Shown: positions 19,167 through 55,592 of the stretch, piece by piece
Position numbering within the stretch: the stretch's first letter is position 1
Layout of the letters: each line of letters starts with the position of its first letter
Virus record (IMG/VR): IMGVR_UViG_3300030055_000004
Source of the DNA: a virus
Taxonomy: Duplodnaviria; Heunggongvirae; Uroviricota; Caudoviricetes
Length of the DNA stretch: 64,000 nt
Direction: 5' to 3' (one strand)
Program-made: the position numbers and the translations under genes
Notes under the pieces: model-generated
What the model saw: only the letters and a program-made list of their open reading frames with translations
Told to the model about the DNA's origin: nothing
Databases searched by the model: none

Positions 19167-20957
19167 TTATATTTTATTTAAATTAACATTTGAATGTCTA
19201 ACTGTAACATTTCCAGTACTTGTTTGATTCATACAACCAAACCAAATATAATCTCCTACTGCAACATTTACTATCCCAGATGATGACATTCCAGAATAAT
19301 CTGTTGATGTTTGAAATCTTCTAGATGCTACAATATTATCTAATGACGTTGCATTTTGAAATAATTCAAACTTAAATGTATCTGTGGAATTTGATGGGAA
19401 TGCTGTAACACTAAATGCTAAAACATATGCTGCATTTGAACCTGGATTAACCTGTAGAGTACTTCCCCTACTAACTGATCCTGTTCTAGTTGACGTAAAT
19501 GCATGTGTAATATAATATGAATTTATAGTTACAAATGTTACAGTATAAACTCCATTATAATCTACTGTACCAACCTGAGTTACTGGTTCTCCTGTAAGTA
19601 AATTATGTGGTGTTGTAGTTGTTATTAATACTGTACCAGGAATTGTTCCACTATAATTGGCTACACTTGCTATTGAAGCACTTGCTCCAATTTTAAATGT
19701 AAATCCAAGTAATGAACCAGCACCAAAATTATTAATAGAATGATAAAGATTTATATTAGTTATATTAGTTGCAATAGCATTTTCATATTGATACATTTCT
19801 CCATACAATACTTGCGTACCATTAATTCATTCAGTTCCATTATATCTAAGTACCTGATCAAAGACAGGAGCTGTAATTGTTACATCACTTAATCCAGTCA
19901 ATTCATTATTTAATATAACTCTTACAAATAAAGTTCCTGCTGTAGCACTAATAACACCAACTCTACCAACTCTAATTACATATTGTAATGGATCAGTTGG
20001 TGGAGTCATAGTTAGTCCTCCAGCTACTGTAGGACTTAAATATACATTAGCTCCAGATACAAAACCTAAAGTATTTAAATTATGTACTACACCAATATTA
20101 GTAATTAAACCAGTATCTCCAGGTAAAATATCCTGAGTAGCAACCCCAAGAACTGTGGATGTAGCTTCTGATGTTGCAATAGCTAAAGATATAGTACTAG
20201 TATCACTTACAAGACCAGTAGAATAAACCACTTGACCATTAAGAATAGTTGAACCTGTATTATTAAAACATAATACTGTTGTTTCTTGACCTATTTGTAA
20301 TGTAACATTTCCTGCAATCATTATAGCTGCTGTTTTATTAGGAGCATCATAATATAATCTTCCTTGGTCAAATGGACCAACAAGTGGTGCATTTCCAAGT
20401 TTAATTCCTTCATTAAAAGTTGGATAACCATTAATAATTGTTTGTGGTACTGTTTGATCTAATGTTAAATATGATCCTATATTTGCTTTTAATTGTAATT
20501 GATCATATAATAATTTAGCACTTGGATATTGTACATCTGTTGATGCACCTGAAATAGAAACAACTTTATTAGATATATCTTCTTTTCCTGCAATAGCTGC
20601 ACTAGTTATATAACCAACATCATTTGTAAATGCTGATATTAAAGTTGGAATAGCAGCACTTGTTATAAAGCCACTATCATTTGTTAATTGTGATGTTAAA
20701 GTGGGTATAATAGGTTTACCAGTTAAACTGGCATAAGTTCCTAAAGTAGCTACAGGAGCTAATATAGGTTTATTAAGTATTTCTGCTACTCCAGAAATGG
20801 CATTTCAATCTGAATTTACTTGAACTCCTCCAGAGCCAAGATTTAAATCATTTACAAATTGACTAAGAAAAGTAGGTCTATTGATTACATTTAATCAATT
20901 AATTTTTTCTCCACCTAATCCTAGTAAAGTTATGTAGTTGGGGGTTTCTTGTGTCAT
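19167..20957 (-). CDS. tail fibre protein whose frame contains three in-frame TGA codons (read as Trp)
   Basis: ATG at 20957, TAA at 19167-19169, about 597 codons. Repeated tail-fibre motifs LSQFVNDLNLG, SQLTNDSGFIT and SAFTNDVGYIT; rich in Thr, Ser, Gly, Asn and Val. In-frame TGA at 20895-20897 (EKIN-W-LNV), 20805-20807 (VNSD-W-NAISG) and 19827-19829 (NGTE-W-INGT). Confidence 0.6.
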
Positions 20958-21183: not shown

Positions 21184-21483
21184 TTACGATACTTTATTAG
21201 TTTCGTAGATTGCTACTGCTCCACCTGCTGCTGAAGCTATTGCCATGAATGATGCTACTGAATTAGTAACAAATGCATCTCCGGCTGCTGCTGTTGCTGT
21301 TGCTGGTGTTAATAACATTTCATAATCAGTTGCACTAACTACAGTAAAAGAACCTGAAATAGGAATTTTTTTAATATAAATAGTTTGTGTTGCTGATGTA
21401 TTTTGGATTTGAAGACTAGCTCTACTAGTATTAATAGGAGCTACTACTACGGATGTTGTTCCAACTACTAAAGGACTTGCCAT
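21184..21483 (-). CDS. hypothetical structural-like protein (Ala/Thr/Ser-rich)
   Basis: 99 aa with low-complexity composition, inside the structural block. Confidence 0.3.
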   Translation of the reverse strand: MASPLVVGTTSVVVAPINTSRASLQIQNTSATQTIYIKKIPISGSFTVVSATDYEMLLTPATATAAAGDAFVTNSVASFMAIASAAGGAVAIYETNKVS

Positions 21484-21499
21484 AATTTTAAGTTTTTTT

Positions 21500-21529
21500 A
21501 AAAAATAGGGGAGATTTTACTTCCCCTAT
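21500..21529 (-). terminator. rho-independent terminator downstream of the Gly-rich structural gene
   Basis: Stem ATAGGGGAG / CTTCCCCTAT. On the minus strand it is followed by UUUUUAAAAAAA. Confidence 0.5.
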
Positions 21530-21536
21530 CTTAAAA

Positions 21537-22340
21537 TTAGACAATAGTAGTTCCTGTTACTGTTGGATGAATATGAGTTAAGATTGAACTTAACAGATAT
21601 TGATTTTGAGCATTGTTACTAACTTGATTGTTAGCAGCAGCTAATTGATCTCTTAAATTTTGTACATTTAAGTCATTAATTAATGAACGTGTTGCATTTC
21701 CGTCAGAATTAATTAATGATTTAATTTCACAGCAACATTGAGCCATTGCAGCAGCATTTGCAGTTCCTTGAGCTATAATTTGATTAGTAGCATTTTGTGT
21801 TTGCATTGCAGCTCCATTAAAACCTTGTAACGTTGTAGTTGTTAGGTTATTAAATGAATTCAATTGTTGTAATGCATTTTGATTACTTTGTGCAGTAATG
21901 TCACGACCTAAATCATTAATTCCTTGTAAAGTAGTAAAAGCTGATGTAGCTTGTGCTGTTGATAAATTAGCTACAGAATTTAGAATATTTGCAGCTCCAC
22001 CATCTATTGCTGAATTAACTCTACGAAATTCACTATTTAAGATACTATTTAAGTCACCAGAAGCAACTTGAGATCCTAAATTAGTAATTTGTGATTGTAA
22101 TGATTGAAATGCTGGATTAAGAACTACATCAGTTGCTACTGCTGTTGCTGCTGGAGCTACATATCCTGCTCCATATCCTCCACCTCAACCACCACGTCCA
22201 CCAAGTAATCCACCTGCTAACGCTCCACCTAATAATCCGGCGATTCCCCCGCCTAAAATTCCACCTCCTGTGCCTAAAGCGGCTCCTGAAGTTCCTGTTC
22301 CTCCCATTGCTGGGATCATGCCATCTAATGTAAGTGCCAT
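21537..22340 (-). CDS. glycine-rich structural-type protein with one in-frame TGA (read as Trp)
   Basis: ATG at 22340. The N-terminus is Gly-rich (GGTGTSGAALGTGGGILGGGIAG...). In-frame TGA at 22185-22187 (GGRGG-W-GGGYGAGY). It continues into the 21537..21863 ORF without a frame change, about 268 codons. Confidence 0.5.
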
Positions 22341-26811: not shown

Positions 26812-27350
26812 TACTTTTTATAGTTTACAATTGTAACATCGCAATTTTGTAATTCTTCTTGAATTATTTCTTTGATAATGTCCCAATTACCACCAGCCAA
26901 ACCACAACCAATTTTAGGGAGACCAATATGCTTACCTGCAAAAATATAATTCATTTTACGCATACATAAAGTTATTGCTTCATAATCAACAGGAGCTCCA
27001 CCAGAAGTCCCATATCGACATTGTGTATAAGCATTAACAACAGAAAAAGTTTTTAAATCAGTCCATTGTTTGAATTGATTTCTTACTTTACTATGCGAAA
27101 ATAATTTAGTTTCACCTAAATCATGTTTAGATAAAGTAAATGTATCATAATCAATTTGACCAAGTTTATTTACATCACCTTTGTACTCCATATCTTCTAA
27201 AGGAAATGTATTACACTCAAAAGTATTTTTCATTTCCACAGCAATACCAGCACCCATTATACAATAACAATTGCAGCCATGAGCGATTACATCAAACTCA
27301 CCTTGTAAGGCAAGTTTGATTAAATCACCATCTATTTCTTTATATGTCAT
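26811..27350 (-). CDS. macro domain protein (ADP-ribose binding/processing)
   Basis: 179 aa. GDLIKLALQGEFDVIAHGCNC...MGAGIAVEM and IGLPKIGCGLAGGNW match the macro-domain GDIT...DAIVNAAN...GGGV and IAFPaIstGvyG motifs. Confidence 0.5.
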   Translation of the reverse strand: MTYKEIDGDLIKLALQGEFDVIAHGCNCYCIMGAGIAVEMKNTFECNTFPLEDMEYKGDVNKLGQIDYDTFTLSKHDLGETKLFSHSKVRNQFKQWTDLKTFSVVNAYTQCRYGTSGGAPVDYEAITLCMRKMNYIFAGKHIGLPKIGCGLAGGNWDIIKEIIQEELQNCDVTIVNYKK

Positions 27351-28774
27351 TATTTTTTATTTAAAGCAATTTGTAAATATTCATCAGCAATTTTACGTAT
27401 TTCAGTAAATTTTTGATCATTAAATAATTCTCCATTTTTATAAACTACTTGTAATTCATCTATATAAGGATTATTTTCACCAAATTGTTCAGTAGAACTT
27501 TGAATTGTCATAAATCCATTACCAGCTTTATGTAATTTTAATAATCCTGCTTTACTTGCTTTAGTCATATCTGATTTTGGAGTTTTTTGTACATTAATAG
27601 ATTTACCTTCAATTTCAACATGTGAAACCTTTACAGCCCACCTATCAGTATCTCTACATAAACCATCTGTATGTAATCCACCACCAGAACCAGTATTAAA
27701 ATTTTCACAAGACCAACCTGTTTTAATATATTCTTCATAAATTTTAGGTATACTTTTTTCATTCATTCCATCACCTTGAAGTAAACCGACATTATGATTA
27801 ATCACTTTGTAGTCTTTATGATTTAAATGATACCCAAAAAGATTACCTAATTGTTCAGAATATTTAATTACATTAGTTAAAGGATCATTACTATCAGGAC
27901 GAGGTATAACTCTACCAGGTCTATCAATAATTTTCTGTTTAACTTCTGGGTCACCGAGTACATTTTTAATAAAACCATCAGCATCATAACTATCCATTAC
28001 AATACTAATTGGTAAATGTGGTTCAGCACGTTCTAACTGTGCTAACACATAATCAATTTCACCACGACCTTGACCCCATACAGTTGCTACTGAATGTTCA
28101 GTTGCCCACACAGATTGACCAATATTATTATCAGTATAGTATTCTTCAATACCTTCCATTGCTGGAAGATTATCACTACCATTAGAGAATATTAACATAG
28201 CCATTCCACCTAATACTGCTCCCTCACGATAAACAGCACCACGTAATCCAAAATCATTCACTGCAAATGCTAAATCTGGCTTATCACAAGTCATATTAAA
28301 ATAAGGAAGAATCCCTTTTTTAATATTGAATAAACGAGTTGCTACACCAGACGATTGCCAATTCCACATTAAATAATCTTCAAAATGACTAACCATACAA
28401 GCAAACCAAGGTTCAGTTGATACAATAGTGAAACAAACATTACCTGTTGGAAGAACTGTGCCTTCTTTAACACATTTAATTTCCAATGGGAAATAACCTA
28501 ATTTTTTAACTTTTTCCCAAATTTCTTTAGGAAAGTATTTATCAGTACCAAAGACACGTTTGCATCTTGCAGCACCTCTTTCAATATTTTCCTGTGTTAC
28601 TTTCTGCATGAAATATTCTTTAAGAATATATTGCATCCCAAAGAAACAAATTTCTGCATGTTGTCCACCCTTACGAGCTTCACCATATGAATAAAAATGA
28701 TTAATTCCAGCTGGACGTTGTAACCAATGAGTTATTTTATAAGCATCAGTATCTATTACACTATTTTTCCACAT
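27350..28774 (-). CDS. nadV: nicotinamide phosphoribosyltransferase
   Basis: 474 aa. N-terminal TDAYKITHW, then FGLRG; full-length similarity in pattern to NAMPT/NadV. Confidence 0.8.
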   Translation of the reverse strand: MWKNSVIDTDAYKITHWLQRPAGINHFYSYGEARKGGQHAEICFFGMQYILKEYFMQKVTQENIERGAARCKRVFGTDKYFPKEIWEKVKKLGYFPLEIKCVKEGTVLPTGNVCFTIVSTEPWFACMVSHFEDYLMWNWQSSGVATRLFNIKKGILPYFNMTCDKPDLAFAVNDFGLRGAVYREGAVLGGMAMLIFSNGSDNLPAMEGIEEYYTDNNIGQSVWATEHSVATVWGQGRGEIDYVLAQLERAEPHLPISIVMDSYDADGFIKNVLGDPEVKQKIIDRPGRVIPRPDSNDPLTNVIKYSEQLGNLFGYHLNHKDYKVINHNVGLLQGDGMNEKSIPKIYEEYIKTGWSCENFNTGSGGGLHTDGLCRDTDRWAVKVSHVEIEGKSINVQKTPKSDMTKASKAGLLKLHKAGNGFMTIQSSTEQFGENNPYIDELQVVYKNGELFNDQKFTEIRKIADEYLQIALNKK

Positions 28775-28951
28775 ATCTCTTATTTATTTTTTTAAATATT
28801 TATTTATTTTCTTCTACAAATTCTCCAATAATATATTCTGTACGAATTTTACCTACTACTTCGGCTTCACATGAACCACGAGGACAGCATTTAAATTCTT
28901 GGCATCTAGGACACCAAATTAAATCCGTTTCTTTTGTTGGTATATCAGGTA

Positions 28952-29374
28952 TTACCATTGTTTATTAATTAAATATTCATAAATTTCTCTCCAATCAGTT
29001 TCTGGATCGAATCCAGCTTTATCATCCAAAAGGACACTAAAGTAAAACTTTCTATTAAAATTACCAGTATTAGTATTATGAATATCAGTATTTTTATTAA
29101 AGAAATCAACAGTTATATTATTTTCTTTAAACATTTGTCTAATACGCATTAATTCAGATGGGTAGCACGAACTCCATAAAATAATTTTAGATTCAGGTAA
29201 TGAACTAATTAATTGTAAGCATTCTAAAGCATCATTATTAATCCATTCATTTTGATTAGTAGTATAATTACTTTTTAAACATACACCATGAAGATCAATA
29301 CACCAATAAATAGTCTCCCAATTGCGCTCATCCATTACTGAATAAGCACGTTCGATTGATTTGATTATTGACAT
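28952..29374 (-). CDS. hypothetical protein (weak HAD-like features)
   Basis: 140 aa. CIDLHGV and LLDDKAG segments look only loosely like HAD motifs I and IV. Confidence 0.2.
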   Translation of the reverse strand: MSIIKSIERAYSVMDERNWETIYWCIDLHGVCLKSNYTTNQNEWINNDALECLQLISSLPESKIILWSSCYPSELMRIRQMFKENNITVDFFNKNTDIHNTNTGNFNRKFYFSVLLDDKAGFDPETDWREIYEYLINKQW

Positions 29375-29588
29375 ACTATTAAATTTTAGTACAAGAACAA
29401 GTTGCTTTGTTCAAAGCATAAGAACTAGTTCTAAATCTATCTTCTGGATCTGGGATTGCTTTTAAAGAAAAATCAGTTGTATTTACATGGTATCCTTTAG
29501 ATTTCAAATGATATGCAATTATTTCTTTAATATCTGCAACACTTAAATTAATAGTTACTATTTCGCTAATTTCCATATTAGATATTTT

Positions 29589-30482
29589 TCATTTTAATAA
29601 AAATTTAAAAAGTTTTTTATGTTCTCCGACCAAAATATTTTCTACCTCTGGAGTCATTTTAACCCATTTTAAGGCAGCTATATCATCTTGAGGTTGTGGA
29701 GATCCAAACAAAGATTTACACTTGTAAAAATGAGTCATAATAGAACGATCTGTCATACCTCTATATCTCCAATCTTGTATCTTCATTGAAGTTACAAATT
29801 CAAAGTTGGATAATTCAAGTCCTGTTTCTTCTCTTCCTTCACGTTTTGCTGCAGCTTCGTCTGATTCATCTTTAATGTCAACGAATCCACCTACAAACCT
29901 CCACTCTTTTTCATTAGGTTTTTGACCTAATAATAATTCACCTGCTTCATTAAAAATCGCTACATCTACAGTTGAGTAAACTGTTGGATATTGATTATAA
30001 ACTGAATAAATTATACCTGCTCTAAATTCAGAGGAAGATTTAACCTTTTTAGATATATCAACACGAATATCAGTTGCAGAGATAAAAGTATCAGGAGTTA
30101 ATTCCTGAGTCTTAAATTTACCTTCATAAAAAGGAATAAATGAATCTTTACTTCCGTAAAGAGTTACTGATTCCATATTAAAGATATCTCTAATTTTTTC
30201 ATCAAGTTTATTACTCCAAACTGCATTAGACTTTTGGTCTCTCAAAGGGAATATACCAGCAATACGTAAATCATTCCCAAATGCCTCTTTTAACATCAAA
30301 CTACGAGTTAAAAAATCCATTGGATGTTTCATATTACCTATTGTAGGACTAACGCCTAGAAAGATAATAACTTTATCATGTTTGCTAAGTACGAAGTTAA
30401 TCAATTTAATATGTTCACTATGTAGCTCATTAGTTTGAAATCTTCCAATTATAACTCCTACATCTGTTGTTTTAATATCCAT
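29589..30482 (-). CDS. natV: bifunctional NMN adenylyltransferase / Nudix hydrolase (NatV-like)
   Basis: 297 aa. N-terminal GRFQTNELHSEH (nucleotidyltransferase GRFQPxHxGH-type); C-terminal Nudix box GGFVDIKDESDEAAAKREGREETG. Confidence 0.75.
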   Translation of the reverse strand: MDIKTTDVGVIIGRFQTNELHSEHIKLINFVLSKHDKVIIFLGVSPTIGNMKHPMDFLTRSLMLKEAFGNDLRIAGIFPLRDQKSNAVWSNKLDEKIRDIFNMESVTLYGSKDSFIPFYEGKFKTQELTPDTFISATDIRVDISKKVKSSSEFRAGIIYSVYNQYPTVYSTVDVAIFNEAGELLLGQKPNEKEWRFVGGFVDIKDESDEAAAKREGREETGLELSNFEFVTSMKIQDWRYRGMTDRSIMTHFYKCKSLFGSPQPQDDIAALKWVKMTPEVENILVGEHKKLFKFLLK

Positions 30483-35409: not shown

Positions 35410-35462
35410 TTTATATTTTTATTGTACCCGGGCCGAGAATCAAACTCGGATTTGAACGTTAG

Positions 35463-35535
35463 TATGCAAGCTGCGAATCGAACGCAGGACACTCGGTTTA
35501 GAAAACCGATGCTCTATCCCCTGAGCTACAAGCAC
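35463..35535 (-). tRNA. tRNA-Arg(TCT)
   Basis: Cloverleaf with D-arm GCTC/GAGC, anticodon stem TCGGT/ACCGA, loop TTTCTAA, T-arm CTGCG-TTCGATT-CGCAG. The acceptor stem has U•U at 5-68 and 6-67. Confidence 0.6.
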
Positions 35536-35538
35536 ATA

Positions 35539-36126
35539 TTACTTATCTTTAGGATAGCGAAATTCATTTCTTGCACTATTCTTATTCTTTGATTTAAATG
35601 TATCTAATTGAGAATCACAGTTAGGACAAATACACCTATAATTTTCTCTAATGTTATTTGCTGCATCTCCATCAATATGATCTAATATTAAAACTAAATG
35701 TTTATTATTCCATACAGAATCCATCCCACAAATTGCACATTTATTACCTTGTTCTTTAAGAATAAAAGGTTTTACAGTAGTAATACTATAATTACCTCTT
35801 TGATATTCTTTTGGAGAAGTAAGAAAATAATCATATAATTCTTTAGATTGAAATTCTTTTTGACATGTAATTCCACAATATTTTCTTTGAGTAGTTGTAT
35901 CTAAAGGTTTTCCACAATTTACACAAACTAAATCAGCATATTTATTTACACCTTTTCTAAATGTTTCAGATTCATTTATCTTTCTACGTTGTGGTAATTC
36001 AATTCCAAATTTTTTAGCAACTTTTCTTATATTTGAACCAGTGCAACCATAAGTTAAACCAATTGTATTATAAGGGATATTTTGTACTAAAATTAACTCC
36101 TCTAATTCTTCTTTTATATATTCCAT
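35539..36126 (-). CDS. HNH homing endonuclease
   Basis: 195 aa. C-terminal CAICG...HLVLILDHIDGDAANNIRENYRCICPNCD HNH motif with zinc-finger cysteines. Confidence 0.6.
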   Translation of the reverse strand: MEYIKEELEELILVQNIPYNTIGLTYGCTGSNIRKVAKKFGIELPQRRKINESETFRKGVNKYADLVCVNCGKPLDTTTQRKYCGITCQKEFQSKELYDYFLTSPKEYQRGNYSITTVKPFILKEQGNKCAICGMDSVWNNKHLVLILDHIDGDAANNIRENYRCICPNCDSQLDTFKSKNKNSARNEFRYPKDK

Positions 36127-36244
36127 TTTTATTAATTATTTATACTACAAAGGTACAAATAATTTTTGATATAAAATAGTTTGAATTAGTTAATTTATGT
36201 TAAAAGTGTACTGTTCTATTCAGTTGAACTATCCAGGCATTTAG

Positions 36245-36315
36245 CAAGTACACTAGGATTCGAGCCTAGATCAGGAGTTTTGGAGACTCTTATGCTACCA
36301 TTGAATCATATACCT
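36245..36315 (-). tRNA. tRNA-Trp(CCA)-like (atypical)
   Basis: Anticodon loop CTCCAAA (as in E. coli tRNA-Trp), T-arm CTAGG-CTCGAAT-CCTAG. The D-arm is weak, the anticodon stem has 4 bp plus an A:C mismatch, and the acceptor stem has two G•U pairs. Confidence 0.4.
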
Positions 36316-36318
36316 ATT

Positions 36319-36738
36319 TTAATTAATATCACATATTAAAGCTTTTCTTTTTTCACAAACTCCATAATAAAATTTAAGATTTTTTAATCCTCTCAAATAA
36401 ACATTTTGTCTTTGTGTATCATCCCAATGAATTACAATTTTTGATTTTATAGTTTTATCTGTAATCCAATAATTTGGTTTATTTTTAATATATTCAATAA
36501 AATGTTTAATACAATTTTTTGCCCATATTAAACTCTTTAATCCATCTTTTCCAGTTACTTTTAAAAATTGATAACCTTCTTTTCTTTTACCAATTTGTAA
36601 TTTAACATAATACCAATCACATTTATTAGTACTATCACATTCTAATTCTAAAAAAAGAATTTGACCTGCTTCATTTTTAGTAATATAATAATAAATATCT
36701 TTATATTTATTATTAGGTTTTAATACAATTTCATACAT
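36319..36738 (-). CDS. hypothetical protein
   Basis: 139 aa ORF between two tRNAs. Confidence 0.25.
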   Translation of the reverse strand: MYEIVLKPNNKYKDIYYYITKNEAGQILFLELECDSTNKCDWYYVKLQIGKRKEGYQFLKVTGKDGLKSLIWAKNCIKHFIEYIKNKPNYWITDKTIKSKIVIHWDDTQRQNVYLRGLKNLKFYYGVCEKRKALICDIN

Positions 36739-36752
36739 ATTATTAATTTTTG

Positions 36753-36835
36753 TACATATAGCAGGACTCGAACCTGCACGCCCCTACGAGCATCGGAGTC
36801 TAAACCCGATATGTCTACCATTCCATCATATACGC
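36753..36835 (-). tRNA. tRNA-Leu(TAG)
   Basis: Type II tRNA. Anticodon stem TCGGG/TCCGA, loop TTTAGAC, long variable arm, T-arm GCAGG-TTCGAGT-CCTGC. Confidence 0.55.
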
Positions 36836-36840
36836 ATTTG

Positions 36841-36913
36841 AGCCAAAGGTGGGGCACGATCCCACAACCCTCTCATTACAAGTGAGATACTCTACCAATT
36901 GAGCTACTTCGGC
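36841..36913 (-). tRNA. tRNA-Thr(TGT)
   Basis: Acceptor GCCGAAG/CTTTGGC, D-arm GCTC-AATTGGTA-GAGT, anticodon stem TCTCA/TGAGA, loop CTTGTAA. Confidence 0.65.
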
Positions 36914-37049
36914 AATTTTAGAGGGTCACTATTAACCTCTTTGATGTTGTTTCTTCTTATTCGTACACGTGTTTGAAATTCAGACTGGACTACATTTCTT
37001 TACCAGATAGTTTTAAATATATAAGACTAATGAAAACCTATATATCTTG

Positions 37050-37136
37050 CGGAGAGTACCGGATTCGAACCGATGTGCCCTGTTACAGGCCACTAGTTTA
37101 GCAAACTAGCACGATAAACCACTCTGCCAACTCTCC
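37050..37136 (-). tRNA. tRNA-Ser(GCT)
   Basis: Perfect acceptor GGAGAGT/ACTCTCC, anticodon stem CTAGT/ACTAG, loop TTGCTAA, long variable arm, T-arm ATCGG-TTCGAAT-CCGGT. Confidence 0.7.
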
Positions 37137-37438
37137 AATACATTACTTATGTTGCATATGATAGTGTTTAACTCTCAAATCAACTTTACTTTGTTTTAAT
37201 TTACTATTAGCAAATAAGTTATAAACAGGTTCTTCTAATATGTGATGAATAACATATATAGGAAAATTTAATATATCTATACCAATACAATATTTAACTA
37301 TCATATTTTTCTTGCAAATTTATGAATCAACCATCCAAAAACTAAAACAGCCCCTATTATAATTCCAATAATAATTCCAATTCCTATTTTAAACATTATT
37401 TTTTAATTTACGTTTTTGACCATGATATTTAATTTCAA

Positions 37439-37714
37439 TCATAAATATTCATAAGTGACCTTCTTTTTTTTTCCAATCATCTCCATATGATAAACCGCAT
37501 TAATAGGTCTATCTTCAATTATACAAACTCCATTCCCAATATAATTATACGATCTTGCATACATTTTATCATTGGTGGAATCTCTAATACATATTTCTTT
37601 ACCTTTTAAATACTGCCAATTAATTATAACATCATTACATAATTGATGAAAACTTCCTTGAACTATTTGCATATTATTTAATTTTTGGGTGAAAGGTGGG
37701 ATTCGAACCCACAT
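37439..37714 (-). CDS. hypothetical protein
   Basis: 91 aa. Its 5' end overlaps the tRNA-His 3' region. Confidence 0.2.
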   Translation of the reverse strand: MWVRIPPFTQKLNNMQIVQGSFHQLCNDVIINWQYLKGKEICIRDSTNDKMYARSYNYIGNGVCIIEDRPINAVYHMEMIGKKKKVTYEYL

Positions 37715-37775
37715 TAGTCATTACAACATTCCTGATTCACAATCAGGTCGGCATCCCTTACCGGCTACAATCACC
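37688..37775 (-). tRNA. tRNA-His(GTG) with extra G-1 and a long variable insertion
   Basis: Anticodon stem CCTGA/TCAGG, loop TTGTGAA, T-arm GTGGG-TTCGAAT-CCCAC, G-1:C73. The acceptor stem has U•U at 5-68 and 6-67. An about 19 nt insert sits in the variable region and the D-arm is weak. Confidence 0.5.
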
Positions 37776-37785
37776 ATATAAAAAG

Positions 37786-37868
37786 TGGGACATGATGGAG
37801 TCGAACCACCCGAGTCCGAAGACAACTGCTTTACAGGCAGTCCCGCTACCCCTACGGTATAACATCCC
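37786..37868 (-). tRNA. tRNA-Tyr(GTA)
   Basis: Type II tRNA. Anticodon stem CTGC/GCAG, loop CTGTAAA, variable-arm hairpin GTCTTCGGAC, T-loop TTCGACT. Confidence 0.55.
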
Positions 37869-38168
37869 ATATAATAGTCTTTCCTATCAGTCATACTTCC
37901 TTTAAATTCTGTTTAGATAATTCATCCTAACGGCAAAGCAGTATTGTATAAACCAGTATTCTTTAAAATTATGCTTGTACCGGAGTATTAGCTTCTTTAA
38001 TTTTTTCAGCAATTTTAGTATTAACTGCTTTTAAATTTGCTTGTGCTTGTTCAACTGTAACTATTTGATCATAAGCTAATGCTTTTAAATCATTTAATGA
38101 CATTGTATCAAGATTTACTTGTTGTTCATTCATTGTTTTAATTTTGACTATTATTTATCTCTTTTTAT

Positions 38169-38645
38169 TTATCTTACATTTATAATATTACTAAGTGTAC
38201 CTTTACTACTAATATTATATTTTAACATTAAATCTTTATAAGAATATCCAGAGTCACGATCAGCTTTAATTTCTATAACTAATTCATCTGAATATTTTTT
38301 ATGTGCATTAGAAGCTTTATTAATTCTTATTTCTTTAGATTGATCCATCATATTATCACTATGTGTACCTATTTTAAGATTATCCCAAGAATTATTTAAA
38401 GAATTACTATCCATATGTCGAATCATTATATTTTCTTTATAAATTTCTTCTCCAAATTTTTGATATGCTTGTAATCTATGTACTCTAACTTTAATAGTTT
38501 TACCTAGTAATTTTGTACTAATAGTTTTATAACCATTATTAATTGTGCCTAATAAAATTTTTCCAGATTTACTAATGCATGTACCATCTTTTTCAACTTT
38601 GTACCCTAAATCAAAAAGTACTTTTTCATAATATGTATATTCCAT
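38169..38645 (-). CDS. HNH (HNH_3 / AP2-type) homing endonuclease
   Basis: 158 aa. ...KVRVHRLQAYQKFG... and ...IRHMDSNSLNNSWDNLKIGTHSDN... are typical of phage HNH_3 endonucleases. Confidence 0.5.
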   Translation of the reverse strand: MEYTYYEKVLFDLGYKVEKDGTCISKSGKILLGTINNGYKTISTKLLGKTIKVRVHRLQAYQKFGEEIYKENIMIRHMDSNSLNNSWDNLKIGTHSDNMMDQSKEIRINKASNAHKKYSDELVIEIKADRDSGYSYKDLMLKYNISSKGTLSNIINVR

Positions 38646-38658
38646 ATAATAATTTAAG

Positions 38659-38741
38659 CGGAAGAAGTAGGTCCCGACCCCAAGATGTTTCCGTCCGTAC
38701 AGATTTCAAGTCTGTCTTGCTACCTAAGCAATTCATCTTCC
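38659..38741 (-). tRNA. tRNA-Ser(TGA)-like with aberrant T-arm
   Basis: Acceptor GGAAGAT, D-arm TTGC/GCAA, anticodon stem ACAGA/TCTGT, loop CTTGAAA, long variable arm. The T-arm region (GGGGTCGGGACCTAC) does not form a canonical TΨC stem-loop. Confidence 0.4.
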
Positions 38742-38820
38742 ATTAACGAGATTGCTTTGAACCTCTAAAGTCAACCTATATTGATACATATAGGATTTTA
38801 GTCTTTCTGGAGAAAGAATA

Positions 38821-39276
38821 TTATTTTTTAACTATATTTAAAATATCATAAAATTTACACCATTTTCTTATAGCATTATCTGTAACACCATAAAATTTAC
38901 CAACAGCAACAAATGAAATTAATTCTTTAAATTTAGATATAAGTTCTTCAGAAGTAGGTCTTTTACTACCATTAATTTTGTGTGAACATTCTTGAGAACA
39001 ACATTTATTTTTTCTAGATTTACCAATTAATTCTTTATTACAGTATAAGCAATATTTAGGAATAATTTCTTTAATTTCTTTAACTTTAATTTCTTTAATT
39101 ATTTCAATTGGAATAATATTTTCATTCACAATAAGACTTTCTTCTTTTTTACCTTTACCTCTATAATTATCAGTAAAAGCGTGACAATTAGGGCATAACA
39201 TTTGTAAATTTTCAATACAATGATTAGTATTTACTCCATCAATATGATGTAATTCTAAAGGAATAGGTTCTTCCAT
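38821..39276 (-). CDS. HNH endonuclease, C-terminal portion (split gene)
   Basis: Contains ELHHIDGVNTNHCIENLQMLCPNCHAF. It directly abuts the upstream ORF 39277..39606, which encodes the N-terminal part. Confidence 0.55.
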   Translation of the reverse strand: MEEPIPLELHHIDGVNTNHCIENLQMLCPNCHAFTDNYRGKGKKEESLIVNENIIPIEIIKEIKVKEIKEIIPKYCLYCNKELIGKSRKNKCCSQECSHKINGSKRPTSEELISKFKELISFVAVGKFYGVTDNAIRKWCKFYDILNIVKK

Positions 39277-39606
39277 TCATTCAGTATTATTACATTTTTC
39301 ACATCTATATTCCTTAATACCTTCTTTTAATAATCTTTTATTTAATTTTGATGTAGAAAAAGTAGAATAAGATACTAAAATTTCTTCAATTGGTTGGGCA
39401 AATTTAATTTGTGTATATCTTAATCCAACATTCCATACTTGCCCAGTAAAATGATCTGTATTTAAATCATATTCTTTAATTTTAGCATGAATTGTTTTGT
39501 AATTTCCTCCAACTGCTTTTAATCCTATTTGTCGGCATACTCCAGCAATAGATAAATTTTCTTTTACTGCAATTCTAATTTGTTCTTCTGTGTACTTAGT
39601 TCTCAT
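39277..39606 (-). CDS. HNH endonuclease N-terminal fragment (HTH-like)
   Basis: 109 aa, contiguous with 38821..39276. This is probably one endonuclease gene disrupted by a stop or frameshift. Confidence 0.35.
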   Translation of the reverse strand: MRTKYTEEQIRIAVKENLSIAGVCRQIGLKAVGGNYKTIHAKIKEYDLNTDHFTGQVWNVGLRYTQIKFAQPIEEILVSYSTFSTSKLNKRLLKEGIKEYRCEKCNNTE

Positions 39607-39688
39607 TTTTATAATTATTTAATACACAAAGGTACTAAATAATTTTGAGTCTACCAAATCGAATTATGTTAAAATATATTAAAAATAG

Positions 39689-39770
39689 TACCCGTAGCAG
39701 GAGTCCAACCTGCACGCTTTTAGGCGCTCCCGCTTAAAAGGAGTGTGTCTAGCATTTCACCATACGGGTA
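39689..39770 (-). tRNA. tRNA-Leu(TAA)
   Basis: Type II tRNA. Perfect acceptor ACCCGTA/TACGGGT, anticodon stem CTCCT/GGGAG, loop TTTAAGC, T-arm GCAGG-TTGGACT-CCTGC. Confidence 0.6.
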
Positions 39771-39823
39771 TTAATTGATTATTTTATATATAATCATAGT
39801 TTTAAGAACCATTCGTTCTTTGT

Positions 39824-39894
39824 TGTCCCATCTAGATTCGAACTAGAGCTATTTGAGTCAAAGTCAAATGTGTTAGACCACTACACTATGGAAC
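39824..39894 (-). tRNA. tRNA-Gln(TTG)
   Basis: Acceptor GTTCCAT/ATGGGAC, anticodon stem TTTGA/TCAAA, loop CTTTGAC, T-arm TCTAG-TTCGAAT-CTAGA. Confidence 0.65.
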
Positions 39895-40162
39895 AATATT
39901 ATTTTTCTATGCAGTAAGTGCTTAGACTTGCCTATCATACCTATCAGAATCATTTAATCTGGCACTAATCTTGGTTAGAAAAATTTAATTTAAAGGTACT
40001 GAATATCTTAACCCACCAGTACAGTCTCAATTCAATTGTATCGCTGTATACGAATACCTTCATGAGGATGGAAGAATTGCTCACACGTTACCTTTATATT
40101 GTAAGAATATCATCATTAGAAATACAATAAATTGTATTTCATCACACTACTATATTCTTGAG

Positions 40163-40233
40163 CGGGAAGTGTAGGAATCGAACCTACGCCTATTGATTAA
40201 CAGTCAACTGCTCGACCTTCGAGCTAACAACCC
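40163..40233 (-). tRNA. tRNA-Asn(GTT)
   Basis: D-arm GCTC/GAGC, anticodon loop CTGTTAA, T-arm GTAGG-TTCGATT-CCTAC. The acceptor stem has U•U at 4-69 and 5-68. Confidence 0.55.
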
Positions 40234-40356
40234 AGTTTATAATTTTTGCTTACCATCGCTTCACTGTTAAAATTACAAAAATACATCAGTTACCATTATC
40301 GTTGTTTCTGCATCAACGCTTCATCCGAAGAGGTCTATAGTCGGTTACTATAACTG

Positions 40357-40430
40357 AGCGATAAGTGGGTCTCCAACCCACAACCTCCGACTTGGAAGGA
40401 CGGCACTCTAAGCAATTGAGCTATTATCGC
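40357..40430 (-). tRNA. tRNA-Gly(TCC)
   Basis: Perfect acceptor GCGATAA/TTATCGC. Anticodon loop CTTCCAA with one U•U in the anticodon stem. The T-loop TTGGAGA lacks the conserved C56. Confidence 0.5.
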
Positions 40431-40543
40431 ATTTTAATTTAATACTATATCAGGGGTTTTCTATTGTACATTTAGCGAGCTCCCTTATACACATCATGAC
40501 TAAATTCATGTTATTTCCATTTTACAGAAACTATAATATTAAA

Positions 40544-40867
40544 TTATTTTATTAGTTGTAATCTATCAAAGATTAAACCATTATTTTCTATTGCTATGGC
40601 TGTAATTGTGCCACATAAATCTGGTTCATGAAATTCAGAAAATGTATATCCATTGTTTGCTAACTTTGGAATCCATTCATCTAAATTTGCTGATAAAAAG
40701 AATAAATAGTTGTTATTCCATTCTTGTGTTTCTTTATTATCAAGGAGGAATTGTGCTACTGCATGTGCTCCTTGGACACATCCATATACGCTATTTAATC
40801 TATTATTAATTAATACGTATAGTTTTCTTTCTTCTACTTGTTCCATTATTATTATTATTTTGTGCAC
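40544..40867 (-). CDS. peptidyl-tRNA hydrolase, PTH2 family
   Basis: 107 aa. KLYVLINNRLNSVYGCVQGAHAVAQF aligns with the PTH2 core K.[24 protein letters not shown]. A downstream ...GTITAIAIENNGL segment is also conserved. Confidence 0.5.
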   Translation of the reverse strand: MHKIIIIMEQVEERKLYVLINNRLNSVYGCVQGAHAVAQFLLDNKETQEWNNNYLFFLSANLDEWIPKLANNGYTFSEFHEPDLCGTITAIAIENNGLIFDRLQLIK

Positions 40868-40935
40868 CGCCCCAGACTTGAACTGGGAACCTATCGGTTA
40901 AAAGCCGAGAGCTCTACATTGGAGCTAGCGGTGCG
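40863..40935 (-). tRNA. tRNA-Lys(TTT)
   Basis: Perfect acceptor GCACCGC/GCGGTGC, D-arm GCTC/GAGC, anticodon loop CTTTTAA, T-arm CCCAG-TTCAAGT-CTGGG. Confidence 0.7.
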
Positions 40936-41095
40936 AGTTTGTTGGAATAGGCAAATCACCAACTATGATACATGCATTGAAAAGAATCACTTTTACTAAT
41001 TGTATCTTTCACATAAAAGTAGATAATGTGATTAGCATTAAACGTACTTTTTCTATACTAAGTGATGTAGCAGAGCAGTTTATTAAACTGTTGTG

Positions 41096-41167
41096 TGAGC
41101 CTAATAGGAGTCGAACCTATATCCCAGGATTCGTAATCCTGTGTTCTATCCATTGAACTATAAGCTC
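41096..41167 (-). tRNA. tRNA-Arg(ACG)
   Basis: D-arm GTTC/GAAC, anticodon stem CAGGA/TCCTG, loop TTACGAA, T-arm ATAGG-TTCGACT-CCTAT. Confidence 0.65.
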
Positions 41168-41177
41168 TCATTAATTG

Positions 41178-41250
41178 TGACCTCTGCTGGATTTGAACCA
41201 GCGACACCTAGATCTTCAATCTAGTGCTCTACCAACTGAGCTAAGAGGTC
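41178..41250 (-). tRNA. tRNA-Phe(GAA)
   Basis: Perfect acceptor GACCTCT/AGAGGTC, anticodon stem CTAGA/TCTAG, loop TTGAAGA, T-arm GCTGG-TTCAAAT-CCAGC. Confidence 0.75.
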
Positions 41251-41296
41251 AAGCAAGATTTTTACTTCTAGGAAGAAATACCTTGAAAAAGAACCG

Positions 41297-41367
41297 TTGC
41301 GATATCAAGAATTGAACTTGAATCAAATGGATATGAGCCAAACATTCTACCATTGAACTATATCACA
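41297..41367 (-). tRNA. tRNA-Met/Ile2(CAT)
   Basis: Anticodon loop CTCATAT on a weak stem, D-arm GTTC/GAAC, T-arm TCAAG-TTCAATT-CTTGA, acceptor TGTGATA/TATCGCA. Confidence 0.5.
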
Positions 41368-41368
41368 G

Positions 41369-41442
41369 TGGGGAAAATAGGACTTGAACCTATGACCTCC
41401 CGGGTATCAGCCGGACGCTCTAACCAACTGAGCTATATCCCC
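41369..41442 (-). tRNA. tRNA-Ile(GAT)
   Basis: D-arm GCTC-AGTTGGTTA-GAGC, anticodon stem TCCGG/CCGGG, loop CTGATAC, T-arm ATAGG-TTCAAGT-CCTAT. Confidence 0.65.
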
Positions 41443-41732
41443 ATTATTTTTCTAAATATTGGAATATAAAAATCTATGGATTGTATATCTTTTCTATGAA
41501 TAGATACTTTATAATTATCATATCTTTTAGATGTATTAGGTTGTCCAATTGGATCTTTCCATATTCTAAAATCTTTCATTACAAAATTTATGTATTCTCC
41601 TTCAAATACAACATCTATTGGATAATGATAATACTCATTCATACCACTAGGTTTTAATTTATGTAGTATAATCCAACAAATTCTTTTATTACTTAATAAT
41701 CTTGGTAAACTTTTAAAAACTTTTCTTGTCAT
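41433..41732 (-). CDS. hypothetical protein
   Basis: 99 aa ORF inside the tRNA island. Confidence 0.2.
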   Translation of the reverse strand: MTRKVFKSLPRLLSNKRICWIILHKLKPSGMNEYYHYPIDVVFEGEYINFVMKDFRIWKDPIGQPNTSKRYDNYKVSIHRKDIQSIDFYIPIFRKIMGI

Positions 41733-41779
41733 TTGGATGTATTTTATTAATTAATACTGTCCGCCATTTTAATAATTTG

Positions 41780-41854
41780 AGCTCATACTCCGATTTGAAC
41801 GGAGGAAATATTGGTTTTGCAGACCAACGCGTTAGACCACTTCGCCATATGAGC
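41780..41854 (-). tRNA. tRNA-Cys(GCA)
   Basis: Perfect acceptor GCTCATA/TATGAGC, anticodon stem TTGGT/ACCAA, loop CTGCAAA, T-arm CTCCG-TTCAAAT-CGGAG. Confidence 0.7.
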
Positions 41855-42017
41855 ATTTAAAAATTCAGTTCTTGCATAAGAAATAATAAACGTTAATTAG
41901 TTTTTTGTACGGGAGTTACACCTATTTATTATATTTACACAAACTAACTTATGCCTAAGTAAATAGCCCACTATATACGCTTCCACTATTTGTTTGCTTC
42001 AATCTGAATTTTATTGT

Positions 42018-42149
42018 TGCGAGCGCCGGATTCGAACCGTGTCTCGGGGTTATAGCTTTATTCTATTCTAAAATAAATTTTAGTTTGAACATTTCACAGA
42101 CTTTTAAACCTGTATGAGCCCAGTGAGCTACCATTGCTCCACCCTCGCA
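42018..42149 (-). tRNA. tRNA-like gene interrupted by an about 60-nt AT-rich insertion (CAT anticodon loop; possible intron or pseudogene)
   Basis: The 5' half (GCGAGGG-TG-GAGC-AATGGTA-GCTC-A-CTGGG-CTCATAC) stops after the anticodon loop. An insert of about 62 nt follows. The 3' half has a T-loop GGTTCGAATCC and acceptor CGCTCGC, which pairs with the 5' end at 6 of 7 positions. Confidence 0.4.
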
Positions 42150-42163
42150 TCTGTTATATTTTG

Positions 42164-42236
42164 TATAAGCGGTGAGACTCGAACTCACGACCACATGCTC
42201 CCAAAGCATGCATTCTACCAACTGAAATACGCCTAT
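42164..42236 (-). tRNA. tRNA-Pro(TGG)
   Basis: Acceptor ATAGGCG/CGCTTAT, anticodon stem CATGC/GCATG, loop TTTGGGA, T-arm GTGAG-TTCGAGT-CTCAC. Confidence 0.65.
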
Positions 42237-42343
42237 ATTTAATTAGAAATCCAATTTTTCAGGATCTTTGAAAGATAAAAACTCATTTGCGAATAATAAT
42301 CCGTTCTTTAAATAAATATCTTGTTTCATATCTAAATCATTTG

Positions 42344-42416
42344 CAGTACTGATGGGAATCAAACCCACTAAATCTCGATAGACAGTCGAGTGCACCAATC
42401 GTTATGCGCCAGTACT
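42344..42416 (-). tRNA. tRNA-Asp(GTC)
   Basis: Perfect acceptor AGTACTG/CAGTACT, anticodon stem CTCGA/TCGAG, loop CTGTCTA (position 37 is U, which is unusual), T-arm GTGGG-TTTGATT-CCCAT. Confidence 0.55.
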
Positions 42417-42423
42417 ATTTTTG

Positions 42424-42496
42424 TAATCGGTATCGGATTCAAACCGATGTTACTTCATAGAAGGTGAAGTGTGCTAGGTCACTGCACTAACCGATC
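42424..42496 (-). tRNA. tRNA-Glu(TTC)
   Basis: D-arm GTGC/GCAC, anticodon stem CTTCA/TGAAG, loop CCTTCTA (C33 and U37 are atypical), T-arm ATCGG-TTTGAAT-CCGAT. Confidence 0.55.
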
Positions 42497-44644: not shown

Positions 44645-45376
44645 TTACTGTTCATTTGTTGGTTTAAGCCAAAGTTTGGTATGTTTAAAAATATACAACT
44701 TTAAATCCCTATATTTACACAACATTTCTAAAGTTTTAAATGTATCAAACTTAAAACATTTGTATAACTCTTCACGAATACGTTCTTCAGACACAACTCC
44801 CATTTTGTATTCATAATCATAGTTCTCAATAACTTCTTGCATATTTGCTGGAATAGCTAAATTTTTAGTTAATGCAAAACGAATAGCTCTTAAAATTCTA
44901 AGGGGATCATCATTAAATGTTACATTACATGGAAGAGGTGTTCTAAGAATTCTAGCTCTTAAATCAGCTTCTCCATTAAATGGATCAATAATATTTCCAT
45001 CTTCATCTTTAGCCATAGCATTAACTGTAAAATCCCTACGTTCAAGATCATCATATAATGAACCAGGTACAATAATAGGTGTACGAGTTCCAGGTATATA
45101 ACCAATTTCCTTACGTGCCATTACAAAATCAGCAACACCTTTATATTTATGTCCTACTGGAAATTTAGCACGAATTGTATAACAATCTTTAGTTACTAAA
45201 AATATTTCAAACATATCTCTTCTTAAGATTTGTTCCAATAAAATAAACATATCACTAGCTTTACTATGTGAAGCAAGTAATATATCATTTGGAACAGCAA
45301 CATAATCGACATCTTTATTTACTAATCCAAGAAATTCATCTCGAATCTTACCACCTACTTCATAGAATTTAAACAT
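44645..45376 (-). CDS. cca: tRNA nucleotidyltransferase (CCA-adding enzyme, head domain)
   Basis: 243 aa. FYEVGGKIRDEFLGLVNKDVDYV and RRDFTVNAMA match the GGxVRD...D.D and RDFTxNA motifs of class II CCA-adding enzymes. Confidence 0.65.
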   Translation of the reverse strand: MFKFYEVGGKIRDEFLGLVNKDVDYVAVPNDILLASHSKASDMFILLEQILRRDMFEIFLVTKDCYTIRAKFPVGHKYKGVADFVMARKEIGYIPGTRTPIIVPGSLYDDLERRDFTVNAMAKDEDGNIIDPFNGEADLRARILRTPLPCNVTFNDDPLRILRAIRFALTKNLAIPANMQEVIENYDYEYKMGVVSEERIREELYKCFKFDTFKTLEMLCKYRDLKLYIFKHTKLWLKPTNEQ

Positions 45377-51235: not shown

Positions 51236-51261
51236 AATAATTTATTTTATGTTATTAATTG

Positions 51262-51339
51262 TGGTATTAGAAAGATTCGAACCTTCAACCTCGTACCTTG
51301 CGGGTTTAACGTGCTCTAACCAATTGAGCTATAATACCA
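51262..51339 (-). ncRNA. tRNA-like RNA lacking an anticodon arm
   Basis: Perfect acceptor GGTATTA/TAATACC, D-arm GCTC-AATTGGTTA-GAGC, T-arm GAAGG-TTCGAAT-CTTTC. The anticodon arm is replaced by CGT-TAAAC-CC-GCAA-GG-T-ACG, a GNRA-capped mini-hairpin. Total length 78 nt. Confidence 0.5.
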
Positions 51340-53542: not shown

Positions 53543-55592
53543 TATTTCTTTAGTTTTAAAATTGAATCTTTATCAATAACAGTTTTAGTATAAAATGAGC
53601 CAGCTCTAACACCTTCATAATCTACTTGAACATATTTCATTGCCACATTTTCAACGCAATCATCAATACCTTGATTATATGCATCATCTTGAATCTCCTG
53701 AATCATTAAAACATAATCATCATAGCCAAAGTCGCCTTTCATGATTTGTTTCATTGCGTATTTTGCGGGATTTATCATTTTATTAATTTTTAAATTAGTT
53801 AGATTCTCAGGTTCGAACTGAGCTTTACCAACACTATGTCGGTCTGTGCACTAATACACTAAATCAATAGGAATGTCAATCCCTCCAACAGTTTCTATCT
53901 GTAATAGTGATTTTCTCGGATAGAAAATTTACAAAAGAATTCTATTTTATACGTATAGATACATATTCTTATTCATAACCAACCTTTAAGAATGGAACCA
54001 ACATGAATATACATGCTCAACCTATTTTGACATAACAGGATTTTTATTTTTTAATAGAAAATGATTTTAATTCACCAGTTTCTATACATTTTTGTACAAA
54101 TGTAATTTTATAAACTTTACCACGTTTATTACTAAATTCTACTCGTTCTTGAATAGAAAAAGTAGGCTCAATTGGTGGAAGTCCTATCCAATAAGCTTTA
54201 CCACAATGTTTACAACGTTGGTAGCCTTTTGCATCAAGATAATCATATTCATGAATATGAAAAATACTATTAAGTAAGATCATTTTTTATTTAGTTTTAT
54301 TTATATAAAAATTTATAATTTGTTTAAGTTCTTCTTCATCTGTTGCTATAACTAATTTATCATATCCAAATAATCCAAACATTCTATAACCACGACATAA
54401 TATATATCCTTTATAATCAATACCATTATATTGATATTTATGTTCTAAAATAAAATATCCTATATTAGTATTAAATAACCATTTTAATATTTTCATAATT
54501 AATTTTTTATTAATTTAAAAATGGAATAAGTGGGCTTCACAGCAGACTTATTCACGAACTCAAAAACACTATATCATTAATAAAATGATTGTATAGTGGA
54601 AATGGTGGGAGTCGAACCCACGTCTTCCTCAGGAATCCATAATAAAATTTTACAGCTTAGCTTTTACAGTTGCTTATCTGCTATTTCTTGAAAAGAAACA
54701 TTGAAATAACATGGGACTGTTTGGTTACAAACAGAACACCACCAGTACGTGTAACGTACACTTTAACAACCCTCAGTAAGGAGGCGATGTATTACAATTG
54801 TTCTTAGTAGGAACATGACTATTACTCAATTATTGAATAATAAGGTCAATTGACAACCCCATTGGATATTATGCTGCTACAGCGTAAGCTGTGCGACTAC
54901 CAAAAATAAGCGATTTAACGTTTTCTTTTATTGTTTTGATCTCTGATTAACGAGGGTGGTCTACCTCAGCTGTTTTACTATTTATCTACTGCGAATCAAT
55001 ACCAAGCATTCCCATATTTAATAGAATTATATAATCTGACTCCTATTCTTGTTATAGTCTACCAGATAGTATCTTTTATAATTTAGAGTATATAGTATAT
55101 AATTTTAATTTTTAATAACCGAAACAATTTACATAAGGATCATCATCAAAATCTTGAGTATTAAGATCATCTAATACATCACTTTCTTTTTTTAATTTCA
55201 TACTTTTTATTCTTTAAAAGCTATAATTGTTCCATAAACTATCATTTTAACATTATCATATATAAAAGTAAAATGATTATTCTGAGAATGTACATCTATA
55301 CATCCTTTCCATTCTCTAATAAGAAAATTACCATTATATAAACGAATACAATAAGTTGTATTATTTTTAGATGGTATATCATAAATTCCTCTATAAGAAT
55401 TTGTAATTTCTGGAGAACAAGAAATCATAGAGATTAAAAATAATAAAATAATTAGTTTTTTCATATTGTTTTAAAGTTTAATTTAAAAAATTCAACGTTG
55501 CCAATGATCACATCTAAACAGACATCACATAGTCCATCAAAATAATAATCATGACTTCCACATACAGGACATCTCATAATGTTTTTAATTTA

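Follow-up and report, generated by a model that had tools for sequence, protein, structure and literature searches.

The 64,000-nucleotide (nt) stretch of DNA analyzed here, which we call the window, is part of the genome of an uncultured phage (about 168 kilobases (kb), 27% guanine plus cytosine (GC)), and it contains genes in which the codon TGA appears in frame. From the window alone, the original prediction had described a cluster of 22 transfer RNA (tRNA) genes, none with the anticodon TCA, and had left the decoder of UGA unexplained. That gap is now closed by a canonical tRNA with anticodon UCA, here tRNA(UCA), encoded on the same contig about 14 kb beyond the high end of the window. The suggestion that a dedicated suppressor might lie outside the window was thus the right one, and its gene is found at window-equivalent positions 78076-78147. 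As far as sequences can tell, this phage-encoded tRNA, which has Trp identity features, is very probably the UGA decoder of a dual-code phage that reads TGA as Trp in its late genes. TGA-to-Trp recoded phages with their own suppressor tRNA are a known class, which this phage joins as a new member. The puzzle of the decoder was an artefact of looking at one window, with the suppressor elsewhere in the genome.

Near-identical metagenome contigs carrying the proteins of the window were found by exact-protein look-ups, the largest being about 168.2 kb. Contig k141_1775190 of ENA record ERZ27249832 has 168,189 bp, and adding about 67,702 converts window numbering to that of the record; where pieces of this contig overlap the window, identity is 99.84-100%. 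By joining flanking DNA to the window, we obtained a composite of 141.6 kb (record positions 26,622-168,189), which is 84% of the contig. A contig scan of JGI metagenomes for the remaining 26.6 kb (record 1-26,621) returned no relative. The tRNA search of the window used ARAGORN (default, -ps80, and -ps90 with introns) and Rfam, at the gathering score for the whole window and at E ≤ 1 for positions 34000-56000 only. By all of these methods, there is no TCA anticodon in the whole 64-kb window. The check for tRNA(UCA) with ARAGORN across the genome, which covered the 84% of the contig, gave the gene outside the window and none inside it.

The tRNA(UCA) gene is called by ARAGORN and by Rfam at locus L016, positions 4445-4517, on the minus strand of that locus and the plus strand of the window-equivalent numbering, and it was found again on locus L018. 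It sits at about 145.78-145.85 kb of k141_1775190, about 36 kb from the tRNA cluster (hereafter the island). It is 73 nt long, its Rfam tRNA score is 50.9 bits (E = 9e-9), and it is the one high-scoring tRNA that ARAGORN and Rfam report outside the window in the composite. Its fold has a 7-base-pair (bp) acceptor stem, a 5-bp anticodon stem that includes C27-G43, a 7-nt loop CUUCAAA, a 5-nt variable loop, and a 5-bp T stem. When aligned with the phage's own tRNA-Trp(CCA), it shares with it the pair A1-U72 and the discriminator G73. The tRNA-Trp of E. coli and of B. subtilis likewise have A1-U72 and G73. The label that ARAGORN gives to the gene, 'SeC(tca)', names the anticodon only. A selenocysteine tRNA needs a long variable arm, an 8/5 or 9/4 arrangement of acceptor and T stems, and a length of at least about 90 nt, and we reject that identity given the length, stems, and variable loop just described. 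One other tRNA call in the flanking DNA is marginal: a tRNA(AAA) 'Phe' at L016 15836-15906 (window-equivalent about 66687-66757), called by default ARAGORN, with 30.3 bits in Rfam and placed among early genes, is possibly spurious.

The tRNA(UCA) gene is the third from the end of a plus-strand operon (window-equivalent 73069-78738) that has no in-frame TGA. On its 3′ side come an HNH endonuclease gene, a 59-amino-acid (aa) open reading frame (ORF), and then a strong terminator-like hairpin (L016 3296-3332) that parts the operon from convergent genes. A scan for sigma-70 promoters around the operon gave 48 sites versus 59 expected and is uninformative. It had also been proposed that a release-factor modulator or a tryptophanyl-tRNA synthetase (TrpRS) might be involved. 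No Pfam family of release factor 1 (RF1) or TrpRS appears among the precomputed matches for the called genes, over 84% of the contig, or in the nine ORFs of the tRNA(UCA) operon that were scanned.

Within the window, five in-frame TGAs occur in three genes, and each of these genes is broken by TGA alone. Three of the TGAs are in a tail-fibre-like gene of 596 codons (19167..20957, minus strand), with first bases at 20897, 20807, and 19829; the same gene has one TGG. In alignments to the best 120 homologues of the fibre protein, the residue at the second TGA (protein position 51) is W in 163 of 298 high-scoring segment pairs (HSPs), and at the third (position 377) it is W in 25 of 43 HSPs, with Gly rare at both; at the first (position 21), the aligned residue is L, W, or Y. 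The second gene, of 267 codons (21537..22340, minus strand), encodes a Gly-rich protein without a Pfam match, and has one TGA at 22187 and no TGG. The third is an HNH endonuclease gene of 261 codons inside the tRNA island (38821..39606, minus strand), and its one TGA, at 39279, falls within the HNH zinc motif, with CxxC on one side and HH/N/CPNCH on the other. The HNH paralogue adjoining tRNA(UCA) has a W, written TGG, ten residues ahead of (D/H)HIDG, and the TGA of the island HNH gene stands at equal spacing when the two are placed in register by hand. That TGA is read as Trp is therefore borne out, with W in the fibre homologues, but inside the window the reading is limited to these three genes and five codons.

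The rest of the window is written differently. About 109 ORFs of at least 60 aa under table 11 tile its minus strand, and its overall coding length gains little when TGA is taken as a sense codon. Outside the three genes, the window ORFs contain 228 TGG codons and no internal TGA. Under table 11, TGA terminates 16 of the window ORFs; 9 of these overlap the start of the next gene as ATGA, so that TGA also acts as a stop in early genes. This codon usage bears directly on the proposal that the host supplies the decoder. If the host used code 4 (or code 25) and read UGA by itself, the phage tRNA(UCA) would be a redundant copy, and 27% GC is indeed typical of code-4 and code-25 lineages. But an AT-rich phage in a code-4 host is expected to use TGA as the dominant Trp codon everywhere, and the early and middle genes of this phage never use it for Trp and, in the ATGA overlaps, use it to stop. 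As for code 25, in which TGA is Gly, and which the Gly-rich context at 22187 had raised, we rule it out by the rarity of Gly among the homologue residues at the fibre TGAs and by G73 and A1-U72 of tRNA(UCA), which are of Trp type and not of Gly type. We therefore regard supply of the decoder by the host as very improbable.

The in-window fibre cassette (19167-22340, minus strand) consists of the Gly-rich protein, a 99-aa ORF, and the tail-fibre-like protein, set among standard-code early and middle genes. Its local GC is 31%, and its GC skew is near zero versus about -0.2 elsewhere. Over 35% of its length, the fibre protein shares 49% identity with a protein of the crAss-like phage L013, which carries Crass_capsid genes.

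Most of the recoding lies beyond the window. TGA-bearing blocks without any TAA, TAG, or frameshift interruption extend over window-equivalent positions -39836 to -17038, 79343-82799, and 88880-100487, and the first of them holds ORFs of 2909, 2882, and 1519 codons. There are 33 in-frame TGAs in 14 genes outside the window, including the terminase, the portal, and giant virion genes; taken together with the three window genes, the recoded modules comprise 17 genes and 13,299 codons, with 38 in-frame TGA versus 52 TGG. When translated with code 4, an ORF of 784 aa that contains 4 TGAs is matched to positions 43-737 of 758 in a terminase large-subunit PHROG, and another of 738 aa that contains 3 is matched to positions 54-754 of 827 in a portal PHROG; both are full-length matches across the TGAs. 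The residue check by homologues described above covered the fibre and HNH TGAs only. Between the recoded blocks, the early and middle genes have no internal TGA, save at the extreme ends of code-4 ORF calls, where the TGAs are consistent with true stops or with upstream reading. Public gene calls at the same loci come in two forms, as table-11 fragments (for example, of 100, 181, and 392 aa) and as full-length code-4 products (391, 784, 1519, and 2882 aa); evidently, some annotation pipelines already put these contigs under code 4.

Two of the giant ORFs, of about 2900 and 2882 codons, are adjacent (L019 2809-16564 and L017 22-8670), and the ORF of 1519 codons is slightly further downstream. 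None of the three has a Pfam match; their likeness is to the very large virion proteins found in crAss-like phages. A Cpn60/GroEL-like chaperonin gene (L020 3683-5137) is present in the genome too.

With these counts at hand, we can weigh the possibility that there is no recoding at all, and that mutation of TGG to in-frame TGA has inactivated genes that are decaying or were recently imported. A single G-to-A transition is enough to make TGA of TGG, homing-endonuclease genes such as the island HNH often decay, and the GC content and GC skew of the fibre cassette are unusual. Decay, however, would have to account for 38 TGAs in 17 genes with not one TAA, TAG, or frameshift, in reading frames as long as 2909, 2882, and 1519 codons and in genes as essential as the terminase and the portal, for W in the homologues at two of the three fibre TGA positions, and for the presence of a matching tRNA(UCA). 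Moreover, copies of the sequence from strains in dozens of samples are essentially identical, which also speaks against decay. We find this possibility hardly credible. The same near-identity means that a comparison of strain variants, by which we sought selection on the TGAs, had no signal to read.

The reading that we prefer is decoding by the phage's own tRNA(UCA). The early and middle genes (among them replication, nucleotide metabolism, nicotinamide adenine dinucleotide (NAD) salvage, and the tRNA island), which fill nearly the whole window, are written in the standard code, with Trp as TGG only and TGA as stop. In this reading TGA stands for Trp in the late genes (terminase, portal, giant virion proteins, and tail fibres), as well as in the in-window fibre cassette and in one HNH gene. 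The tRNA(UCA) would receive its CCA tail from a phage nucleotidyltransferase, would presumably be charged by the host TrpRS, and, once charged, would compete with the host release factor 2 (RF2). Given such charging and competition, late-gene translation would depend on the accumulation of tRNA(UCA), which would thereby license it.

Several points weigh against this reading. The expression, aminoacylation, and timing of tRNA(UCA) are predicted from its gene, and its acceptor stem has a G7×G66 mismatch and two G-U pairs. A standard-code host is deduced only from the codon usage of the early genes of the phage. Record positions 1-26,621, about 16% of the contig and outside the composite, could hold another suppressor, an RF1, or a TrpRS. 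Finally, the window and the ENA contig may derive from different samples, though they are at least 99.8% identical.

Dual-code architecture has been described in recoded phages of standard-code hosts, among them the Jade and Agate phages and some crAss-like clades (Borges et al., bioRxiv 10.1101/2021.08.26.457843). The phage studied here resembles the TGA-to-Trp phages of that work in its low GC, its phage-encoded tRNA(UCA), and the assignment of TGA to Trp; in the concentration of in-frame TGA in structural and packaging genes, and possibly in lysis genes; and in using the standard code for its replication genes and for the code-change gene. On the other hand, it is known from non-gut metagenome assemblies (JGI and ENA records), its suppressor is outside the large tRNA array, alone in a separate opposite-strand operon beside an HNH gene, and its early region includes a small fibre cassette that is recoded. 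It also differs from the Jade phages, which have an accessory RF1 and TrpRS, in that neither was found in the 84% of the genome examined. In the same study, a suppressor was detectable in only about 35% of TGA-recoded phage genomes, and non-canonical tRNA structures were suggested as a reason. Our example shows that a suppressor away from the main tRNA array, or on the missing part of an incomplete contig, is easily overlooked, and such distant suppressors may be one more reason for the low rate of detection. The phage thus provides a clean environmental example of a dual code, with standard-code early genes, late genes in which TGA is Trp, 23 tRNA genes, a transfer-messenger RNA (tmRNA), and a CCA-adding enzyme.

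No close relative has turned up in reference collections. Comparison to GenBank phages with blastn and tblastn gave scattered tRNA and HNH matches and NAMPT homologues at no more than 38% identity, with no close cultured relative, and INPHARED has no close relative either. In IMG/VR, an exact-match search with the tRNA-Trp gene and a protein-based search for relatives were both empty, and the lineage is absent from that collection.

We turn now to the tRNA island of the window (35462..42496, minus strand), which has 22 tRNA-like genes with interleaved HNH-type and other small ORFs, as seen by ARAGORN and Rfam. All 22 anticodons listed in the original prediction were reproduced, and none of them is TCA. 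Default ARAGORN finds 19 of them, all on the minus strand, with anticodons TCT, CCA, TAG, TGT, GCT, GTG, GTA, TAA, TTG, GTT, TCC, TTT, ACG, GAA, CAT, GAT, GCA, TGG, and TTC; there is no tRNA-Ala and no tRNA-Val in the island. The other three need relaxed thresholds. The tRNA-Asp(GTC) (42343-42416, minus strand) is called by ARAGORN at -ps80 and has 43.1 bits in Rfam. An interrupted tRNA(CAT) (42016-42149, minus strand) has 28.6 bits, just below the gathering score of 29 bits. And a weak candidate for tRNA-Ser(TGA) (38658-38738, minus strand) is called by ARAGORN at -ps80 only, with no Rfam match at E ≤ 1.

Besides this Ser(TGA), the atypical genes of the island are the interrupted Met, a Tyr with 28.9 bits, and an 88-nt His. 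The interrupted tRNA(CAT) has a GGG/CCC anticodon stem, directly behind whose loop about 64 nt are inserted at position 37/38, the canonical site of introns. Such an insert is too short to be a group I intron, and the gene could be a pseudogene or could contain an unusual small intervening sequence; as a hidden suppressor it is ruled out by its anticodon, which is CAT. The tRNA-His(GTG) (37687-37774, minus strand; Rfam 35.1 bits) has a variable region of about 20 unpaired nt; its acceptor stem contains two U-U mismatches, and the gene overlaps the 3′ end of an ORF at 37439-37714.

By inspection of the 3′ tails, which are mostly C and then A or T, a 3′ CCA is encoded by 0 of the 22 island tRNAs, and neither by tRNA(UCA) nor by the odd tRNA-like gene that the window has at 51261-51338. 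Just upstream of the island, the phage has a tRNA nucleotidyltransferase of the CCA-adding enzyme family (44645..45376, minus strand; Pfam PF01743); since CCA is missing from all the phage tRNA genes, this enzyme is probably required. With tens of tRNAs and HNH-type and small ORFs in the early region and a CCA-adding enzyme nearby, the island is like the large tRNA islands of T4-like, T5-like, and crAss-like phages, and individual tRNAs and HNH genes in it have DNA-level matches to many big lytic phages. It is unlike those islands in its aberrant members (the interrupted CAT, the 88-nt His, and the weak Ser(UGA)) and in having the suppressor outside.

The only tRNA-Trp of the window (36245..36315, minus strand; 71 nt, ARAGORN, Rfam 46.3 bits) has the anticodon CCA. 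It had been described as atypical, with a weak D-arm and an A:C mismatch in the anticodon stem, and had been put forward as a possible reader of UGA by analogy with the Hirsh suppressor. The description is correct. Apart from A1-U72 and G73, this tRNA has a D-stem of three pairs with a U12×C23 mismatch, a U11-A24 pair, and G at position 9. In the anticodon arm, A27×C43 is unpaired and pairs 28-42 to 31-39 are intact, which results in a 4-bp anticodon stem with a 7-nt loop, and the T-loop has C54 and A59. This tRNA reads UGG. Of the Hirsh nucleotides, G24A and A9C, it has A24, paired with U11, whereas position 9 is G. Many tRNAs share the U11-A24 pair, as well as A59, and A24 is therefore not diagnostic and says little alone.

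Could near-cognate C34:A3 pairing nevertheless let this tRNA-Trp(CCA) read UGA, be it as the main decoder or, beside tRNA(UCA), as a leaky co-decoder that acts early? The 4-bp stem with unpaired A27 and C43, together with A24 and A59, would favor such reading. But the near-cognate route is superfluous in a genome with a cognate tRNA(UCA), features such as U11-A24 and A59 are widespread, and a late gene with 3-5 TGAs would be produced with very inefficient yield by near-cognate reading alone. Reportedly, forms of tRNA-Trp(CCA) whose anticodon stems have 4 bp ('Blastocrithidia-like'), ascribed to Kachale et al. in 2023, are UGA readers. The phage tRNA is like these and like Hirsh-type tRNA-Trp(CCA) in its unpaired 27:43, its 7-nt loop, its A24, and its co-occurrence with tRNA(UCA). 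Because of its A24 it falls outside the strict 'Blastocrithidia-like' definition, and it further differs in being phage-encoded and in not being a required decoder.

The effect of the stem has been measured in bacteria. Leaving 27:43 unpinned in E. coli tRNA-Trp(CCA) increases UGA readthrough about 2.5-fold in vivo, a modest effect that needed overexpression (PMC13092985), and the triple mutant C27A/G24A/G59A reads UGA in vitro (PMC13092985, Fakih et al. 2026). The phage tRNA has A24, A27, and A59 together. A 4-bp-stem tRNA-Trp(CCA) was found in 70 of 201 code-4 bacterial genomes, 65 of these 70 having tRNA(UCA) too (PMC13092985), and our phage pairs the two tRNAs in the same way. However, the same survey counted 3438 genes for 4-bp-stem tRNA-Trp(CCA), mostly in standard-code bacteria, and phages go unmentioned in it (PMC13092985). 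Because there are thousands of such genes in standard-code bacteria, the 4-bp stem alone predicts little. Altogether, we consider near-cognate reading by tRNA-Trp(CCA) unlikely. As a UGA decoder it is not required, given the cognate tRNA(UCA), and it would be at most an auxiliary route, for which the unpaired 27:43 is the more relevant feature than A24.

Such an auxiliary route could take the form of a two-tier decoding of UGA, with a leaky near-cognate tRNA-Trp(CCA) in the early island and a separately transcribed, cognate tRNA(UCA) for full decoding. We give this scheme a low probability. The two tiers together would set how strongly or when TGA-containing genes are expressed, and candidates for such control would be two elements of the early region, the fibre cassette and the HNH gene. 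If true, this would be the first phage case of the 4-bp-stem mechanism, and a natural test of whether 4-bp-stem tRNAs matter beside a cognate suppressor, a question that was left open in PMC13092985. In any case, a cognate suppressor and a 4-bp-stem tRNA-Trp(CCA) in one genome make a convenient system for testing what the stem contributes to the reading of UGA.

Two RNA genes of the window were left out of the range considered in the original prediction. The first is the tmRNA (54594-55013, minus strand), which matches Rfam RF00023 with 75.5 bits over the full model (positions 1-374). It is missed by default ARAGORN, and at -ps90 it is called permuted, with the predicted tag ENVKSLIFGSRTAYAVAA*. 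A trans-translation RNA in a phage that alters stop-codon reading is possibly worth attention. The second is the odd tRNA-like gene at 51261-51338 (minus strand; Rfam 52.8 bits), which ARAGORN calls 'Cys GCA'; a 525-aa ORF starts 25 nt downstream of it. The gene has canonical acceptor, D, and T arms, and an anticodon arm of 20 nt instead of 17 (CGTTAAACCCGCAAGGTACG), whose loop has either 5 nt, or 7 nt with C as residue 33. A normal decoder it is not. As a hidden suppressor it is ruled out, its loop being CCGCAAG or CGCAA, with no UCA.

Among the protein genes of the window, there is an NAD-salvage pair (27350-30482, minus strand), with a NAMPT of 474 aa (PF18127, PF04095) and a NUDIX-domain protein of 297 aa that looks like a nicotinamide mononucleotide (NMN) adenylyltransferase fusion. 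The window has further genes of this kind, namely ThyX-like, RNase H, and MgtC-like ones.

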